This document shows, one piece after another, positions 5,547-21,139 of a stretch of 64,000 nucleotides of DNA. Below the pieces are notes generated by a model. The model made no database searches and was not told where the DNA came from. It saw only the letters and a list, made by a program, of their open reading frames with translations. The stretch is taken from positions 1 to 64,000 of IMG/VR virus record IMGVR_UViG_3300037296_000220. The stretch is one strand, 5' to 3'. Every line of letters begins with the position of its first letter. Position 1 is the stretch's first letter. The position numbers and the translations under genes are program-made. Origin of the DNA: a virus.

Positions 5547-5550
5547 GTGA

Positions 5551-5922
5551 CTGGTGTACTTTGAGAACGCTTTAGCCCGCTAACTGCGGGCTTTTTATTG
5601 GGTGTACTTTGAGAACGCTCTTTAAAAGGTTCGTTTTGTCGAAGTTTTGACCCTTTGCTGGTTGTTTTTTGATCAAAATGAATGGTTTACCTAGAAGAAG
5701 TTAGAACATAGGTTATATACCTATGTTAAAAGAGTTAGAAAGTTAAAGAGTTAAGGGCTGAAAACCCTATATAAAACAAAGACTTACAATTGAAAGCGTT
5801 CTCAAAGTACACCAGTTCCGTTCCCGAAGTACCCCAAAAGCGTTCCCGAAGTACACCAGTTCCGTTCTTCAGGTACACCACCGGCGTTCTTGAAGTACAC
5901 CTCAGCGTTCTCAAAGTACACC
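5551..5922. repeat. Iteron-type replication origin
   Basis: Six direct repeats CGTTCYYVARGTACMCC starting at 5797, 5819, 5841, 5863, 5885 and 5906 (21-22 bp period); two inverted copies at 5551-5573 and 5601-5619; AT-rich tract between them; DnaA-box-like TTGTCCACA at 5968. Confidence 0.88.
5574..5597 (+). terminator. Intrinsic terminator of mazEF
   Basis: AGCCCGC-TAACT-GCGGGCT followed by a T run. Confidence 0.8.
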
Positions 5923-5930
5923 TCGTTCAA

Positions 5931-6836
5931 TCACTCTACAGGCTCTATACCGGGGTTCTCCCCAGGGTTGTCCACAGATTCTGTGGATTGTTTGGGGTAA
6001 AACGTGACGATCTCACGGTCTGAGATGGCGAAATTGTAGTCCAAAATGCCGTTCCCCTGTATCTGACGCAGTTCGAACCGGAACTTGCGTAAGCTGGCGG
6101 AGCCCACCTTGTCGAACAGTTTGGCCATGCCGATCGACCACTCCTTCTGGCGCCCACAATACTTTCGGGCAATCTCATACAGGCGGCGCTCGGTGCCCCG
6201 GGACAGGCGGAAATACTCCCGGTTGTAGGTGAGCACGTTCAGCTCGTTGATTGACTCCATGAACATGGTGTTGATCTTGATGTCCACGTACTCGATGGTG
6301 CTGGCCTCGGTCTCTTCCAGGTCAAACTCAAAGGAGCCGGTATCAATGATCGAGAAGATGGACAGTTTGCCCTTGCCGCGCTGGCCAGGGAGTTTCTTCT
6401 TCTGCATTTCGATCTGGGTACCCTGCAGGCGCAGCAGCGCTTTGCGGAACAGCTCATACTGCTTGCCGCCCTTCTTGCGGTTAGTGGCCTTCAGGAAGTG
6501 GTAGGTGTACACCCGCACCTTCTCGGTGGCCACAATGGAGCGCTCGTTGTGGGGAAGGTCTTTCTCGCCGGCGGACTTCACGCGCTGGTTGTAGTCTTCA
6601 ACGATCTGACTGATGGCGTAAAGCACCAGGTCTTTGTCGAAGATGGTGGCCCGGCCATACTTGCTCGGCACGATCTTCACGGAGATGTGATCGTTCTCCC
6701 ACTCGATGGTTCGGCTATCACTCTGCTTTGACAGGGCAAACATGGGAAATTCCATGCTGTCGCGCTCACCCTTGGTAGCAATGTCCCGGGTGGGCGGCTC
6801 GATCAACGGTAGTGTGAGCTGATTATCAGTCGCCAT
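5931..6836 (-). CDS. repA: Plasmid replication initiator (RepA/RPA family)
   Basis: MEFPMFALSK, GRATIFDKDLVLY and ERRLYEIARKYCG motifs; adjacent iterons. Confidence 0.9.
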   Translation of the reverse strand: MATDNQLTLPLIEPPTRDIATKGERDSMEFPMFALSKQSDSRTIEWENDHISVKIVPSKYGRATIFDKDLVLYAISQIVEDYNQRVKSAGEKDLPHNERSIVATEKVRVYTYHFLKATNRKKGGKQYELFRKALLRLQGTQIEMQKKKLPGQRGKGKLSIFSIIDTGSFEFDLEETEASTIEYVDIKINTMFMESINELNVLTYNREYFRLSRGTERRLYEIARKYCGRQKEWSIGMAKLFDKVGSASLRKFRFELRQIQGNGILDYNFAISDREIVTFYPKQSTESVDNPGENPGIEPVE

Positions 6837-6911
6837 GAAATTTCCTCTTGTTTCAAACAAACAACTATGTATGATAGTGTCTATCAAACGCACACAGACA
6901 GGTTACGCAAC

Positions 6912-12002: not shown

Positions 12003-12479
12003 GGTCTCTCCTGTTGCTTAGTTAGTTGTTTGTGTGAGCGTTCATAGTAGTGTTTTGCATCTGGCGAGTCTACTGCGGGGTTCGAGTGCCCGTGTGCGTG
12101 CCGGGTGAGCGCGGAGCGCGACTCCCGTCTCGTTGGGTGGGCTGTTGCGGAGTTTCGGCCTTGCCAGCGTTTGCTCAGGCGTCCTTGCCCGTCATCCCCG
12201 TGTGTTTGCGTGGGGTGTCCCTTGCGTCGCTCCTGCGGCCTTACAGGGCGTCCTGGCGGCAGAGCCCGAATTGAAGCCCTGCTGCCCTGCCCTCAGTGCC
12301 CGAAATGTGGCACTTCCAGCGTTTGCACCTTCCATTTCCTACCTGTCCCGGGGTGTGGACGATGTGGTGCGGTTTGGTTGCACGTTGCTGCGGGTATTGG
12401 TTGTTGTGAATGTAGCGGTAATACGGGTATTGAGTGTTTCGGCTCCGGCAAGTTGGCACCGCCCGGGCCACGCAGCATT

Positions 12480-12522
12480 AGCAGTTTCTAAGATGATAAC
12501 GATTATCATATTAGAAACTGCT
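12480..12522. repeat. 43-bp palindrome with Fur-box-like core
   Basis: AGCAGTTTCTAA-G-ATGATAA-CGA-TTATCAT-A-TTAGAAACTGCT. Confidence 0.85.
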
Positions 12523-12538
12523 GTATTAGTGCGTTGCA

Positions 12539-12560
12539 GAGCGCGCACTAATGCGCGCTC
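12539..12560 (-). terminator. Hairpin downstream of 12571..13116
   Basis: Perfect 9-bp stem GAGCGCGCA-CTAA-TGCGCGCTC; no clear U-tract. Confidence 0.5.
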
Positions 12561-12570
12561 ATTGTTGCAC

Positions 12571-13116
12571 TTAGTCGAACAGTGCAATCATTCGCTTGTA
12601 CAATGCTGAATCAGTCTTAAAAGTCATTGTCTGCGTAGACTTCTCATAATCAGCGACATCTAAGAACAAGCAGAAGCGTTTGAAGTAGTTCGCTTGTGTA
12701 TTCGTCTCGTGACTCATAGCGCGCTGTAAAGCGTCGATGCTGATAGATTCAGCATTGTTTACGACGATGACTGTCAGAGCGTTCAGTAATGCTTTATCGA
12801 GCTTGTTCTTGTCAGTCGCAGCAATCGCGTTCAGCGCGCTCATAAGACGCTTTTTCAATTCACGCGACTGATTAACAATTGATTCAGCGTTCAGCTTGAA
12901 CGTGTAGCACACTGCTAGTGCGTCACTGCTCAGCTCTGACAGTTTGCTGTCGTATTTAGCGTGCGTCGCAGAGCGCTGTTGAGCGCGCTTCACGTCTGTG
13001 TCTTTAGTCTCTTCGTACTGACTAGCGAACTGCTCAGAGCGTGTCAGATTGTCACTAGCAGACTGTGACACAGTAGCAGAGAAAGAAGAGATAAAATCAG
13101 TCTTTTTAATAGTCAT
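12571..13116 (-). CDS. Hypothetical Gly/Pro/Trp-free protein, possible C-terminal winged helix
   Basis: AGGA RBS and near-consensus promoter upstream; weak by-eye similarity to the C-terminal half of 28293..29051. Confidence 0.8.
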   Translation of the reverse strand: MTIKKTDFISSFSATVSQSASDNLTRSEQFASQYEETKDTDVKRAQQRSATHAKYDSKLSELSSDALAVCYTFKLNAESIVNQSRELKKRLMSALNAIAATDKNKLDKALLNALTVIVVNNAESISIDALQRAMSHETNTQANYFKRFCLFLDVADYEKSTQTMTFKTDSALYKRMIALFD

Positions 13117-13191
13117 GATAAGTCATCCTAAAACAGTGCAAGTGTGCGACTTGCTTCGCGTTGATTCGCTGCGTTGCGATTCAATAAGTTC

Positions 13192-13220
13192 ATAATAAAG
13201 TCTATGTCGCACACTGTCAA
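13192..13220 (-). promoter_or_regulatory. Strong sigma70 promoter with operator variant in the spacer
   Basis: TTGACA-17-TATTAT; CTATGTCGCACAC at 13202-13214. Confidence 0.8.
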
Positions 13221-13284
13221 ACAAAGTTGTAAGTTTGTTTATATCGCTTTCGCATAGAACGCACGTTCTATATCGGTTTATGTT

Positions 13285-13324
13285 CTATGTAACATAGTGA
13301 CTTTATTAATAGAAAGCGTACTAT
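13285..13324 (+). promoter_or_regulatory. Operator plus promoter of 13359..13652
   Basis: CTATGTAACATAG (13285-13297) abutting GTGACT-16-TACTAT. Confidence 0.6.
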
Positions 13325-13358
13325 ATACGTACACACACAAACGAAAGCGAGTCACATA

Positions 13359-13652
13359 ATGAAAGCTCTTGAGATTGTACGCACTGAACGCGCAGACAAA
13401 GCAGCACGCTACACAGTGCGCGCTATCGTGCGCGACTCTAACAGCGCTCTGAAAGTCGCAACGTTCAATGCACGCATTGCGCAAGATTCCAACTATCACT
13501 TGACCAGCTTCGTTTACAGCGAGTCGCGAAAGCTCCGCGCTATCGCTAAAGCATTCGATCAAGACCGCTTGAACGATTTTTTGATGACTGTTGAACAGTT
13601 GCTTTTTAGAGCGTACCGCTCAGACACTGAACGACAATTGTCCGCATTCTGA
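13359..13652 (+). CDS. Hypothetical Gly/Pro/Trp-free basic protein
   Basis: AGCGAG RBS-like site, own promoter, downstream hairpin at 13673-13709. Confidence 0.7.
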   Translation: MKALEIVRTERADKAARYTVRAIVRDSNSALKVATFNARIAQDSNYHLTSFVYSESRKLRAIAKAFDQDRLNDFLMTVEQLLFRAYRSDTERQLSAF

Positions 13653-13707
13653 TAAACGAGAATGACCCGCGAAAGCGAAAAAAGTGCAATAAAAGCGCTT
13701 TTTTCGC

Positions 13708-13736
13708 TTGACCTAAAAGTCTATGTGACATAGAAT
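13708..13736 (+). promoter_or_regulatory. Strong sigma70 promoter overlapped by operator
   Basis: TTGACC-17-TAGAAT; CTATGTGACATAG at 13721-13733. Confidence 0.75.
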
Positions 13737-14120
13737 AGCTTTATTGAATCAGAGCGAGATTGAAATCAGCCAAAAACCGAATTTTGACAAGTCACCACGG
13801 CACGCACGCAACCGCGAGTGAAAACCGCTCCTGCGCCGCATTCCTGGCCATTCCCGTTTCCGCTCGCCGTTTCGAGGCCGCGGCACTACCACCCTTATTA
13901 CTTCGGTGCCTTATACCTATAGCCGCTCCTATAGGAAAAACCCGCGGCTCCCCGCCCTATGGCGTACCTTGGGCCGTTTCCTATGGCGGCCCCTATAGGA
14001 AAACCCCAGGCCGTTCCCTATGGCCGCTTACTGGCAAACCATGGTGTCCCGGGTGCACTGAACCCATGGGCTCACCACGGCTGCAGATCCCCTTGGCCCC
14101 ACCAGGGCTTTTCTTCAGGC

Positions 14121-14145
14121 AAAAAGAAACCCGCACTGAGCGGGT
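14121..14145 (-). terminator. Intrinsic terminator
   Basis: ACCCGC-TCAGT-GCGGGT-TTCTTTTT on the minus strand. Confidence 0.8.
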
Positions 14146-14362
14146 CAAAGGTTTTTAGGATGTCTTTCTGATTACGCCCGCACAGACCTGGTACCGCGCC
14201 CGGAACAAAGGTCAGTTTGGTCAGTGCTCGATGCAGGGCCGATAAGCGAGAGAACCGGCCTTACTGAGCGTCCACACAACACTTGAACACCTGGCTGTCT
14301 GATAACCCTATCTGAGTCGAATCAATCCAGCGTGTCTGCTCTGTTAGTCTGTGCGAGCGATG
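14121..14362 (-). ncRNA. Putative structured non-coding RNA
   Basis: -10 TATACT at 14369-14374; 14-bp closing stem 14346-14359/14175-14188; internal hairpins; no AUG; terminator at 14121-14145. Confidence 0.6.
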
Positions 14363-14638
14363 AAATGAAGTATACAGCGCTTTGATAGTTAATCACTACT
14401 GGGCCTCAGTCCCTGTTAGGTAGTCACTATAGTCGTCACGGAGCTGCTATAGGTGTATGCGTGGGAGCCGGGGTGGGACGGACCGTCATTATACGCGTAT
14501 GCCGGTGAGAGAAAGACCGTCATTGACAGCGTCTGAGAGCGTGCTGAGTGAACGGGGTGCTGTGAGTGCTACGTGTGTACTAACTGAGTGTGGGAACGTG
14601 CTTGCAGACGTGCTCAGCGTGCTTCCCTGCACTGCCCT

Positions 14639-14839
14639 TTAGCGTGATTGACGTGCTGCGCGTATCAGTCGAGCAATCTCATCCTGGTACGCTTGTTGAG
14701 CGGGGCTCAAAGTGGGCTTGTAGCGATTGTACTGCTTGGGCTTGTTCTTAGGTGGCAGCACTGTGGTCAGTGGAAACTGCTCAGCCTGTTGTTGCAGGTC
14801 TTCGTGGATCTCATTGCGTGTGTTGGGACCGATGGACAT
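14639..14839 (-). CDS. Small hypothetical protein (paralog of 15405..15587)
   Basis: Shared NTRN, TVLPPKxKPK and TLSPAQQxYQDE motifs. Confidence 0.8.
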   Translation of the reverse strand: MSIGPNTRNEIHEDLQQQAEQFPLTTVLPPKNKPKQYNRYKPTLSPAQQAYQDEIARLIRAARQSR

Positions 14840-14983
14840 AGGGTCTCACTTAGTTGTGTGTGTTGTGTGTGCAGGCGTGATTGTAACCACGGGTAAGGCG
14901 CTGTAAAGGTTCAAACAGACGCCGCGGCCCCCCCAAGGGTGTCTATCACTGTTTCAAACGGGGCATAAGCCCCGTCAGAGCGA

Positions 14984-15229
14984 TTACAGCAGGGACGCTT
15001 GCTCTTCCCAGAACGCTTGCTCTTCGAGCGGTTCAAACTGCATGTTTTGCAGCATGTCCCAGGCCATCTCTTTCTCGGCCTCGATCTGACGCTGACGGTC
15101 TTCCCAGACTGTGTCTTCATCCCACTCTTTGGCCCAGTGCTCGATGTCGTCCTGGCGATCCTCTTCTTCAGCATCAAACTGAGCGGTCAGGTAGTCCAGG
15201 TCGCGGGTTTCGTTGTATTGAATGGTCAT
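14984..15229 (-). CDS. Small highly acidic protein
   Basis: Own CCACAG-type promoter and AGCGAG RBS; D/E/W-rich. Confidence 0.7.
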   Translation of the reverse strand: MTIQYNETRDLDYLTAQFDAEEEDRQDDIEHWAKEWDEDTVWEDRQRQIEAEKEMAWDMLQNMQFEPLEEQAFWEEQASLL

Positions 15230-15404
15230 GATGTGTCTCGCTGTGCTTGTGTGTAAGTACACTCTAAGCAGCTGACAGAGGCACTTCTACTGTGGCAACA
15301 GGTTCACCAGTGCGACACCAGGCTGAAGCCACGGGACTACCGCGGGACTACCGCGGCTGTGACTGCACTGAACAGACCCGGTGAAAGCCGGGTCATTTGA
15401 GTGG

Positions 15405-15587
15405 TTACTTCAGACGCTTCAGTTCATCCTGGTACGACTGCTGAGCGGGGCTCAGTGTTGCGGTGTATGTGCTGCGCACTTTCGGCTTTTTCTTAGGTGG
15501 CAGCACAGTGATCTGACCGCCCCAGTTGCTGCTCTGCTGCTCTATAGCGTCGTGTTCTGCGTTGCGTGTGTTTTGCATGATGCTCAT
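15405..15587 (-). CDS. Small hypothetical protein (paralog of 14639..14839)
   Basis: Same motifs as its paralog; own CCACAG-type promoter. Confidence 0.8.
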   Translation of the reverse strand: MSIMQNTRNAEHDAIEQQSSNWGGQITVLPPKKKPKVRSTYTATLSPAQQSYQDELKRLK

Positions 15588-15899
15588 AGTGGTATCTCGC
15601 TGTGCGCGCTCTCAGAGCGCTTGTGTGTGATGTCTCAATCGACAGACACATGATGACAAGCGCTGAGAGGCGTCTCTACTGTGGCAACTGGCGAGCCAGA
15701 CAGCAGCCGCGGGAGCGCCAAGGGACACCACGGGGAGGCACAGCCGCGGTATGACCATGGCTCCCCGTGGTTCACCAGACGCCGCGGCACTCCCACGGCG
15801 GCACCGCTGTTTAAAAATGGCAGTGCACATCACGGCACTGCCATTCTCACCTAATCTACCCAGCCCCTCATACCTATGGCGGTCCCTATAGGAAATCCA

Positions 15900-16466
15900 T
15901 TACTCGTCACGCTGCCGTTGGTAGCCCTGCTCAGCTTCCTGGGTGCGCAACTTAGCAAAAGCATCCAGATCCGCCCGATCCCAGCCCTTGCGGGCCAGTA
16001 TCATCCCCATGCGACCCAGGGCTTCTGCGTGGCGTTTATCTTCGTCGACGCAGTAATCCCATTCACTCCCGAACATATAGGTCCACAGGTCACCAAATCG
16101 TTCATTCATCACCTGGTCTGAGAACTGCGGTGGGCCGTACAGCTCCGGGTTCAAGTCCCGGCTCAGTGCCCCATGACCCAGGACACACGCAGTGCTGCCA
16201 CAGGGAAACAAGCAGTGCTTCACCGTCAGCTTGGAGTTGGACTGACAAGAGTTTTCGACCATCAACTGATGAAAATCGGGCACCAGCTCTGATATATCCT
16301 GAGACAGGCGGTAGTAGCTGCTCATTCTCACCGTCTCAGGCTTCACGTTGTCACGCAGATGCTCATAGAGCCGCTGCAACAGATCCCAGTTGACCCCGTT
16401 CTCTGCGTGCTCCCCATACGCGTGTGTACCTGCCGGGGTGGGATGGACCGTCGTTTCTACTGGCAT
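15900..16466 (-). CDS. Hypothetical protein with CGSTACxxGH motif
   Basis: Tandem paralog of 16457..16960. Confidence 0.75.
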   Translation of the reverse strand: MPVETTVHPTPAGTHAYGEHAENGVNWDLLQRLYEHLRDNVKPETVRMSSYYRLSQDISELVPDFHQLMVENSCQSNSKLTVKHCLFPCGSTACVLGHGALSRDLNPELYGPPQFSDQVMNERFGDLWTYMFGSEWDYCVDEDKRHAEALGRMGMILARKGWDRADLDAFAKLRTQEAEQGYQRQRDE

Positions 16467-17255: not shown

Positions 17256-17618
17256 TTACTCTGGCACCCACTCACCCACCTTATGCACCAACTGATGCAG
17301 CTGACCCACTGTCATCGTGGCTGGGAGTGTGTCGCCGTTACTGTACTTGTACCCGGTCACAATCAATGTCCCGATCAATACGCTGGCCAATGTATCTGCG
17401 ATCCAGCTCACCTGAAACAGGGGCGAGCCTTCTTCAGCGGTGAACATCGCGTCATCGTCTGCCCAGACACAGTGATCATTCCCAATGTAGCCTGCCCCGG
17501 TCACAGTCTGGCAGCCGATCTCCTGGTACAGGGAGGTCAACACCTCGTCCGGGTTCAGCTCCACCTCTACCACCTGAGTGGGCTCACCCGGCTCTGCCAT
17601 GATCTTTAACGCTCGCAT
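17256..17618 (-). CDS. DUF3846-like hypothetical protein
   Basis: GGAG RBS before MRALKI; LYQEIGC...WADDDA...GTLIVTG pattern. Confidence 0.65.
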   Translation of the reverse strand: MRALKIMAEPGEPTQVVEVELNPDEVLTSLYQEIGCQTVTGAGYIGNDHCVWADDDAMFTAEEGSPLFQVSWIADTLASVLIGTLIVTGYKYSNGDTLPATMTVGQLHQLVHKVGEWVPE

Positions 17619-18332
17619 TGTTCTCTCCAATCGTCGCGGGAACCATTCTCGAACCGCGTGGTTGTCAGGTTTGTCAAAATGCCCTTTCTCAATTTGAGCA
17701 CTGAAAACAGTATAAATCAGTGAAACTGGGGTAGATACGTTGGGAAATGGGGCACCGATCGAGTGACAGCCGCGGCAGTTCCATGGGGTCGAGCGGTCAG
17801 GAGGGGCCGTGGGGCTACCGTGGCGGCACCTGATCCCGGGCTCCCTGTGGGCGGTGCTGGCTGGTTGCGAGTGGGATAATACGGGCATTACAGCGGGATA
17901 GCGGGGTGTTGCGGAGTACCGGTGTGCCAGGGTTGACTTTGACTGTGGCGCGGCGCGCGCCGATTTCACGCTACCCCCCGCAATACCATTCCTATCCTTA
18001 CTCTTCTGTTCATACTCTCTGGTGCTTTACCTCTATGAACTAACTGATTGTGCTCTCTATGGTTCTTTCTTCCCTGATTGATTGTTTCCCTTACGTTTAT
18101 TCTTATGGTTCTCTCTACAGCTCTGGCTCTCCCGGGTTCTCCTATTGGTTTGCTACCCTTTCCCGAATTTCCTTTTTCGTCTACAGGTTCATTCTCTAGG
18201 CAGTTGTACCGGGTGTATCGTTTTCTACCTTTCCACTACGTTTGTGGCCTGTTCCTCAGTTGCCACTGGTGAAGCTTATACCCTTTGTGGCCTGAGCCCT
18301 AGCGCAACAATCTGTATTAGGTGTCGGCTTGT

Positions 18333-21012: not shown

Positions 21013-21139
21013 GCGGAACTCACTTAGTTGTCTGTGTGTTAAGCAATCATACGACGCTCGCACTGGAGCGTCTACTGTGGGGTCAGGGGATTAGAGTGTC
21101 GCCGAAAGTGTCTGAGCGCTCGTCAGAGCGCTTCCCAGT

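Follow-up and report, generated by a model that had tools for sequence, protein, structure and literature searches.

A possible stand-alone non-coding RNA unit built from a promoter-leader cassette in a phage genome

Our analysis tentatively favours the view that positions 14361-14121 on the minus strand hold a stand-alone non-coding unit of ~240 nt, built from the phage's own promoter-plus-leader cassette and placed, in a phage or phage-plasmid genome, within a region of small, separately promoted genes. According to this preferred reading, a CAGTAG box and a TATACT -10 hexamer would start transcription, a degenerate CA-rich mRNA leader would make up the first ~25 nt with no ORF after it, and a strong intrinsic terminator would end the RNA. 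The leader-like 5' end would pair with a segment ~30 nt ahead of the terminator, forming a 14-bp clamp, and the remainder would comprise ordinary, weakly defined secondary structure plus an open segment of ~37 nt. If functional, the RNA would most likely act through that open segment as a base-pairing riboregulator of the sRNA type; a precisely folded protein-binding RNA is not likely. As a non-coding early transcript, the unit is plausible.

The window, that is, the whole stretch of DNA analysed (64,000 nt), is the first part of an IMG/VR virus record of 102,534 bp with direct terminal repeats. The genes of the record include DnaE, ribonucleotide reductase, ThyA, RecA, an SbcC-like ATPase, CobT, ligase and a plasmid-type RepA, and a search run without a positive control found no T7-type RNAP in it. 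The nearest known relatives by DnaE, at just 38-43% identity, are Pseudomonas nickie-like phages, Rhizobium phages and phage-plasmids of ~105-117 kb from Klebsiella, Acinetobacter, Aeromonas and Cupriavidus. Because the best DnaE relative anywhere (the top match among 5.8 billion proteins) is 47% identical, the phage is, by this sequence comparison, a singleton within a large clade. Directly downstream of the RepA gene (RPA family, 5931-6893) lie direct and inverted copies of GGTGTACTTTGAGAACGC, ~17-20 bp long (5549-5817), which are probably the iterons of a plasmid-type origin.

What can be read in the DNA itself are the sequence elements of the unit, its lack of an ORF, and a promoter and leader that bear a family resemblance to others in the phage. 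The unit has no ATG, with stops in all frames, and its features, in the order of the minus strand, are the following:

14403-14396, minus: upstream box of the promoter, CCCAGTAG, which varies the phage's CCACAGTAG(A) box
14374-14369, minus: -10 hexamer TATACT, read directly from the sequence
14359-14337, minus: leader-like 5' segment CGCTCGCACAGACTAACAGAGCA, a degenerate copy of the CA-rich 5' leader
14359-14346 and 14188-14175, minus: predicted closing helix P1, CGCUCGCACAGACU with GGUCUGUGCGGGCG, 14 bp with two G-U pairs
14344-14274, minus: arm P2, an irregular hairpin in the MEA fold, helix probabilities 0.53-0.97
14269-14226, minus: predicted arm P3, GCUC/GAGC, GUA/UGC and GGCCGGU/AUCGGCC, probabilities 0.76-0.99
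14225-14189, minus: open segment of 37 nt, predicted single-stranded, with the direct repeat ACUGACC..ACUGACC
14174-14147, minus: A/U-rich spacer UAAUCAGAAAGACAUCCUAAAAACCUUU from the helix to the terminator, assigned from sequence and fold
14146-14121, minus: intrinsic terminator with a G+C-rich hairpin of 7 bp and then UUCUUUUU, pair probability 0.99

The predicted +1 lies at ~14361 and the closing helix begins about 2 nt later, with its 5' arm (14346-14359) inside the leader-like segment (14337-14359), its two arms 159 nt apart and a pair probability of 0.97 in the predicted ensemble. The first-pass annotation had described the -10 hexamer and this helix, including its two G-U pairs and its position near the predicted +1, and both are present as claimed. 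The AUG-less unit followed by an intrinsic terminator was likewise confirmed; the terminator hairpin spans 14146-14128 and its U-tract runs to 14121. The inner helices fared less evenly, since GACAC/GUGUU, CUGG/CCAG and GGCCGGU/AUCGGCC occur in the MEA and centroid folds, whereas UCA-GUGUU/AGCACUGA is an alternative pairing only. In the MEA fold, P2 is composed of ACA/UGU, AGCA/UGUU, GACAC/GUGUU, CUGG/CCAG, UUGAU/AUCAG and GACUC/GGGUU; this arm differs from that of the MFE fold and is no better than shuffles. Of the two ordinary arms, the well-defined part reduces to the GGCCGGU hairpin of P3 (14260-14254 with 14243-14237, minus strand).

Overall, the MEA fold takes the shape of a three-way junction in which the 37-nt strand stays open. 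The most defensible anatomy in the modelled fold would be an end clamp, two ordinary arms, an open strand of ~37 nt, an A/U-rich spacer and a terminator. Such a layout would fit a base-pairing sRNA that ends in a terminator; it would not be that of an RNA folded precisely to bind a protein. In this regard, an A/U-rich spacer followed by a terminator is the usual 3' module in enterobacterial-type sRNAs, a point that we counted in favour of reading the unit as an sRNA.

The minus-strand intergenic regions of the phage share a box, CC(A)CAGTAG(A), with a TAnnnT hexamer ~20 nt further on. This box/-10 pair precedes the ORFs at 21080, 15295 and 12078, and the variant CCCAGTAG-N21-TATACT is found at 14403. 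The pattern CC.?CAGTA-N19-24-TAnnnT has six minus-strand sites (29135, 22997, 21080, 15295, 14403 and 12078) and one plus-strand site, against a shuffle mean of 1.8 for both strands together. In the candidate, TATACT stands 21 nt downstream of the CAGTAG box, matching the spacing in the other units of the phage. Measured against sigma-70, the -35 is poor, and for this reason a consensus scan left the promoter uncalled. The earlier claim of an own promoter is supported as regards the resemblance to the phage's box/-10 family.

The mRNA units of this box type carry the leader ACACA(A/C)A(A/G)ACAACTAA(G/C)T(G)AG, followed by ATG. Over the whole record, the minus strand carries 19 copies of the core ACAACTAA and the plus strand a single one, where 1.6 per strand are expected. 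Over its first ~25 nt, CGCTCGCACAGAC-TAACAGAGCAG, the candidate carries a degenerate version of this leader with no start codon after it, as comparison with CGCTCACACAAACAACTAACTAAGCAAC at 12035 (after the promoter at 12078) and ACACACAGACAACTAAGTGAG / CACAGACAACTAAGTGAG at 21039 shows. It follows that the 5' arm of the closing helix would be leader-derived. Transcription itself, where the RNA begins and ends, the clamp and whatever function the unit may have are our inferences.

The CA-rich motif ACACA(A/C)A(A/G)ACAACTAA(G/C)T is spread more widely over the minus strand, with copies at 12029, 14857, 21031, 29072, 37530 and 52100 in the window and at 65330, 66085, 75532, 87270, 94170 and other positions beyond it. 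Where the flanks of a copy were read, the context was a promoter, a leader or a gene end. In some units the motif is a 5' leader just past the -10, followed by GTGAG..ATG, and in three units (37538, 75540 and 87276) an extended -10, TGGTATAAT or TGTTATAAT, closely follows it. Its role may be that of a leader, an enhancer, a factor site or a promoter element.

The fold of the unit exceeds chance marginally, through the closing helix only, and nominally. Compared to dinucleotide shuffles, the 250-nt unit has z = -2.32, and the 195-nt core including the closing helix has z = -2.03 against shuffles. The 157-nt interior without that helix (14345-14189) scores z = +0.56, and 142 of 200 shuffles fold equally well or better. 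Additionally, 3302 of the genome's own 187-nt windows were folded and their energies regressed on composition; against this composition-corrected background the core, in a frame that had been picked to include the closing helix, has z = -1.65 and falls at the 5.9th percentile. The centroid fold differs from the MFE fold, at an ensemble diversity of 37-39. Altogether, the earlier description of a multibranched structured RNA finds no backing in these values. We estimate the chance that a 14-bp helix joins both ends of a given 240-nt unit at roughly 0.3-3%. Comparable helices (ungapped, 14 bp, at most two G-U pairs, loop of 100-260 nt) occur at ~9 distinct loci in the 102.5-kb genome, one of which is the RepA iteron field. 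At present the case serves chiefly as a caution: a clamp with plausible inner hairpins in a gene-less gap persuades by eye even when the interior is at chance level, and equally good helices exist elsewhere in the genome, several of them where ORF listings show long open frames.

The strand preference of the fold was likewise counted towards the sRNA, the minus strand reaching -71.0 kcal/mol (z = -2.0) versus -57.2 kcal/mol for the plus strand (z = +0.15). The first-pass annotation had also argued that the G-U-compatible orientation of the arm mismatches favours RNA; this is weak, since by simple reasoning two transition mismatches share a given strand about one time in four. Elsewhere in the neighbourhood, the segments 15610-15860 and 12463-12634 are among the most stable local folds of the genome scan (z about -4.4 to -3.4); they score on both strands, and the candidate RNA falls far short of them. 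The former consists of CCGCGG/CCACGG palindrome arrays between the gene at 15900-16466 and the 60-codon ORF (ORF60) described below.

Among known RNAs, the candidate can be compared with phage trans-acting sRNAs that end in an intrinsic terminator, as described for a lambda sRNA (bioRxiv 10.1101/2024.10.31.621285) and reviewed in PMC12197685. Like these, it is short and gene-less, with a candidate promoter of its own and, at the end, a Rho-independent terminator with a U-tail; it has an A/U-rich pre-terminator stretch and, in the modelled fold, an accessible segment that could pair with the start region of an mRNA. Unlike them, it is known from sequence alone and, at ~240 nt, lies at the long end of the range. 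Another class comprises 3'-UTR-derived sRNAs with an internal promoter, of the DapZ/MicL type. In common with these, the candidate is downstream of a small ORF with no strong terminator between, shares the terminator and has its own candidate promoter; it departs from them in that the upstream ORF is 230 nt off with repeats in between. CisR is a phage-related sRNA derived from a 3' UTR (PMC13250501).

Resemblances to three structured RNAs are limited to general shape. The length and paired ends recall 6S RNA (RF00013), which is largely a double-stranded rod with a central bubble resembling an open promoter; the candidate, in contrast, has no Rfam match and is predicted as a three-way junction that leaves a long strand open. 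As in Y RNA (YrlA, Ro60/Rsr), the ends form a long closing stem and the distal part is branched, but there is no tRNA-like module according to ARAGORN, no Rfam match and no Ro60 gene in the phage. TROVE/Ro60 (PF05731) is absent from the 102.5-kb record with positive controls; the host may encode an Rsr. Terminal inverted repeats closing an RNA of ~190 nt are reminiscent of the a1/a2 repeats of retron msr-msd ncRNA; however, the candidate precedes a terminator, not an RT ORF, and the record is devoid of reverse transcriptase RVT_1 (PF00078), again with positive controls. The lack of both TROVE/Ro60 and reverse transcriptase therefore disfavours the Y-RNA-like and retron-like readings.

That the RNA belongs to no recognised family, as initially noted, was borne out by the searches. 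Rfam 15 at the gathering threshold gave no match over the 64-kb window, and in E-value mode over 13100-15900 it returned only terminator-driven matches (E at least 1.4, well below gathering); weak RyhB and Trp-leader matches (E >1) come solely from the spacer and terminator. ARAGORN found no tRNA or tmRNA genes in the window. When the unit was compared to phage and plasmid DNA, a terminator piece of ~40 nt was the only part matched. The exact two-arm pattern has no match in IMG/VR, where a scan for the leader motif gave isolated chance matches only. The 20-mer of the open segment has no match in metagenomes, and its 17-mer gave chance matches only in GTDB genomes. One cluster of the latter shares a common conserved flank resembling a coding gene, which, read by eye, may be a short-chain dehydrogenase, with the 17-mer antisense to its ..QFGQ.. 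codons. A single-sequence covariance model matched only the candidate itself in the phage. In five distant relatives the best match of such a model (17.8 bits) lies antisense in a CDS of Pseudomonas phage Nican01 and was judged to be chance.

The surroundings are similarly isolated. The proteins encoded at 12571-13116, 15900-16466 and 17256-17969, as well as RepA, have no relatives in IMG/VR, and a neighbouring protein of 188 aa matches only itself among 5.8 billion proteins. Comparison of the unit with the rest of the genome by tblastx and blastn revealed neither a paralog nor a decayed ORF. In summary, the collection of homologs that had been proposed as a check on the candidate returned none from phages, plasmids, IMG/VR, JGI metagenomes, GTDB genomes or the neighbour searches over 5.8 billion proteins.

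The block from 13.9 to 15.9 kb is a set of mini-cassettes with many duplicated segments. Two paralogous small basic proteins of 66 aa (ORF66, 14639-14839, minus strand) and 60 aa (ORF60, 15405-15587, minus strand) are 56% identical and share TVLPPKxKPK and TLSPAQQxYQDE; between them lies an acidic, Asp/Glu/Trp-rich protein of ~81 aa (15229-14984). The sole outside member of this family among 5.8 billion proteins is P0005, a protein of 61 aa with 47% identity on a Logan contig of 2752 bp, and a family profile found nothing in viral, metagenome and genome contigs. A tandem repeat of 34 nt, ATGACGGTC...CGCRTATA (14456-14523), appears to be a leftover fragment of duplication; its second copy resembles the first codons of the gene at 15900-16466, ACGACGGTCCATCCCACCCCGGC.

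In addition, CCTATRG / CCTATAGG sites cluster around the unit, near which 8 of the 12 plus-orientation copies of the record fall. Six copies lie within ~110 bp just downstream of the terminator (13916-14017) and two more at 15873/15885 (15873-15895, after the gene at 15900-16466). Pairs of sites are direct repeats 12 bp apart, CCTATRGCSGYYCCTATAGGAAA. Inverted copies are found at 14427-14453, upstream of the candidate promoter, and an 18-bp inverted repeat joins 13912-13929 with 14440-14457. These are probably binding sites for a DNA-binding protein.

The ORF66 gene (14839-14639) has a good promoter, TTTACA-16-TACAAT, at 14907-14880. Between its stop (14639) and 14121 there is no convincing terminator, with one weak candidate at 14530-14516, and given the strength of the ORF66 promoter the stretch is therefore probably transcribed anyway. 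On the plus strand, a promoter at 13708-13736 and a terminator at 14091-14107 converge on the terminator of the unit, the two terminators (14091-14107 and 14146-14121) standing back-to-back. This plus-strand promoter, TTGACC-17-TAGAAT, reads across the CCTATRG array, and no credible ORF is present from 13708 to 14107. Thus, positions 13708-14115 on the plus strand may constitute a second non-coding transcript of ~380 nt.

Duplicated and decayed pieces fill this neighbourhood, and a dead cassette is therefore a real alternative and the leading rival, although we consider it a somewhat unlikely one: a duplicated promoter-leader unit would have lost its ORF and would perhaps still be transcribed, without function, the helix being a chance inverted repeat. 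The 5' end agrees with such an origin in being a degenerate leader with a 3-nt gap and with the start codon missing where other units have ATG, and so does a region of duplicated modules (the ORF60/ORF66 paralogs, repeats of 44, 33 and 28 nt and the 34-nt tandem repeat), together with the ~9 helices of like quality in the genome and an interior that folds at chance level. Against decay stand the body of ~170 nt, in which tblastx and blastn searches of the genome detected no trace of a decayed ORF or paralog, a terminator that is intact and strong, and a helix that joins both ends of the unit, which would happen by chance at the low rate estimated above. Another alternative, a specific multibranched RNA that would bind or decoy a protein (RNA polymerase or one involved in defence, for instance) or serve as an antitoxin or scaffold, had been put forward by the first-pass annotation, and we regard it as improbable. 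In its favour, stable RNAs typically have their 5' and 3' ends paired, the candidate is close in size to 6S and Y RNAs and the minus strand is favoured for structure. The interior value (z = +0.56), the conflict between MFE and centroid folds with its ensemble diversity, the lack of an Rfam match and of TROVE and RT partner genes in the record, and a covariance model with no credible match in the five distant relatives all argue against it, and we found nothing pointing to a decoy, antitoxin or scaffold role. In this sense, the earlier call of a stand-alone ncRNA is retained for a gene-less unit with a promoter-like site and a strong terminator, but not for any special structure beyond the closing helix.

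Read-through from ORF66 would allow a further reading, namely that the unit is the long 3' UTR of the ORF66 mRNA, with the clamp and terminator acting solely as a stabilising 3' end. The scarcity of terminators between 14639 and 14121 and the fact that each other mini-gene ends in a hairpin are in its favour; we nevertheless find it hard to credit, as a family-type promoter box and -10 stand directly ahead of the clamp and the UTR, at 520 nt, would be long for a gene of 66 codons. A DNA-level element beside the CCTATRG array, either a protein-binding inverted repeat or a single-strand structure for initiation or origin function, is very improbable. It is suggested by the CTATAGG-type sites that bracket the unit (14427/14447 upstream and six at 13916-14017 downstream) and by the 18-bp inverted repeat, but single-stranded DNA folds of the two strands are ordinary (z = -1.4 and -1.0), the RepA iterons are located elsewhere (5549-5817) and the arms of the helix are 159 nt apart. 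Scarcely any weight is given to a 36-aa peptide from a GTG start (14282-14172, minus strand). Such an ORF exists, with an AGG ~9 nt upstream of the GTG; the frame has no ATG, is Arg/Ser-rich with a random-looking composition, crosses a helix arm and begins 80 nt inside the unit rather than behind the leader.

Returning to the preferred reading of a base-pairing sRNA, a possible target emerged from the open segment. Its positions 14225-14212 (minus strand; nucleotides 138-151 of the RNA) show perfect 14-nt complementarity to codons 4-8 (YQFGQ) of a tail-fibre gene, at genome positions 75461-75474. This gene (75485-71361, minus strand) encodes a protein of 1374 aa with tail-fibre PHROG hits. When ~137 translation-initiation regions are considered, 0.4% of shuffles and ~2% of other genome windows match one of them over 14 nt or more; a target test based on duplex energy was not significant (p = 0.12). 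The complementarity was found post hoc and is a weak lead. A fuller proposal would be that an early sRNA, from an exapted promoter-leader cassette, pairs via ACUGACCAAACUGA with tail-fibre codons 4-8, that translation of this late, host-range gene would thereby be held down early in infection or in a plasmid or lysogenic state, and that the 14-bp clamp would shield both RNA ends; taken jointly, we hold these steps to be a long shot.

If real, the unit would be an orphan phage-encoded small RNA from a lineage without close sequenced relatives, and a clear case of an sRNA gene born from a duplicated mRNA promoter-leader cassette. Beyond the candidate itself, the phage-wide leader motif and the CCTATRG arrays may be of wider interest for how this phage organises its transcription.
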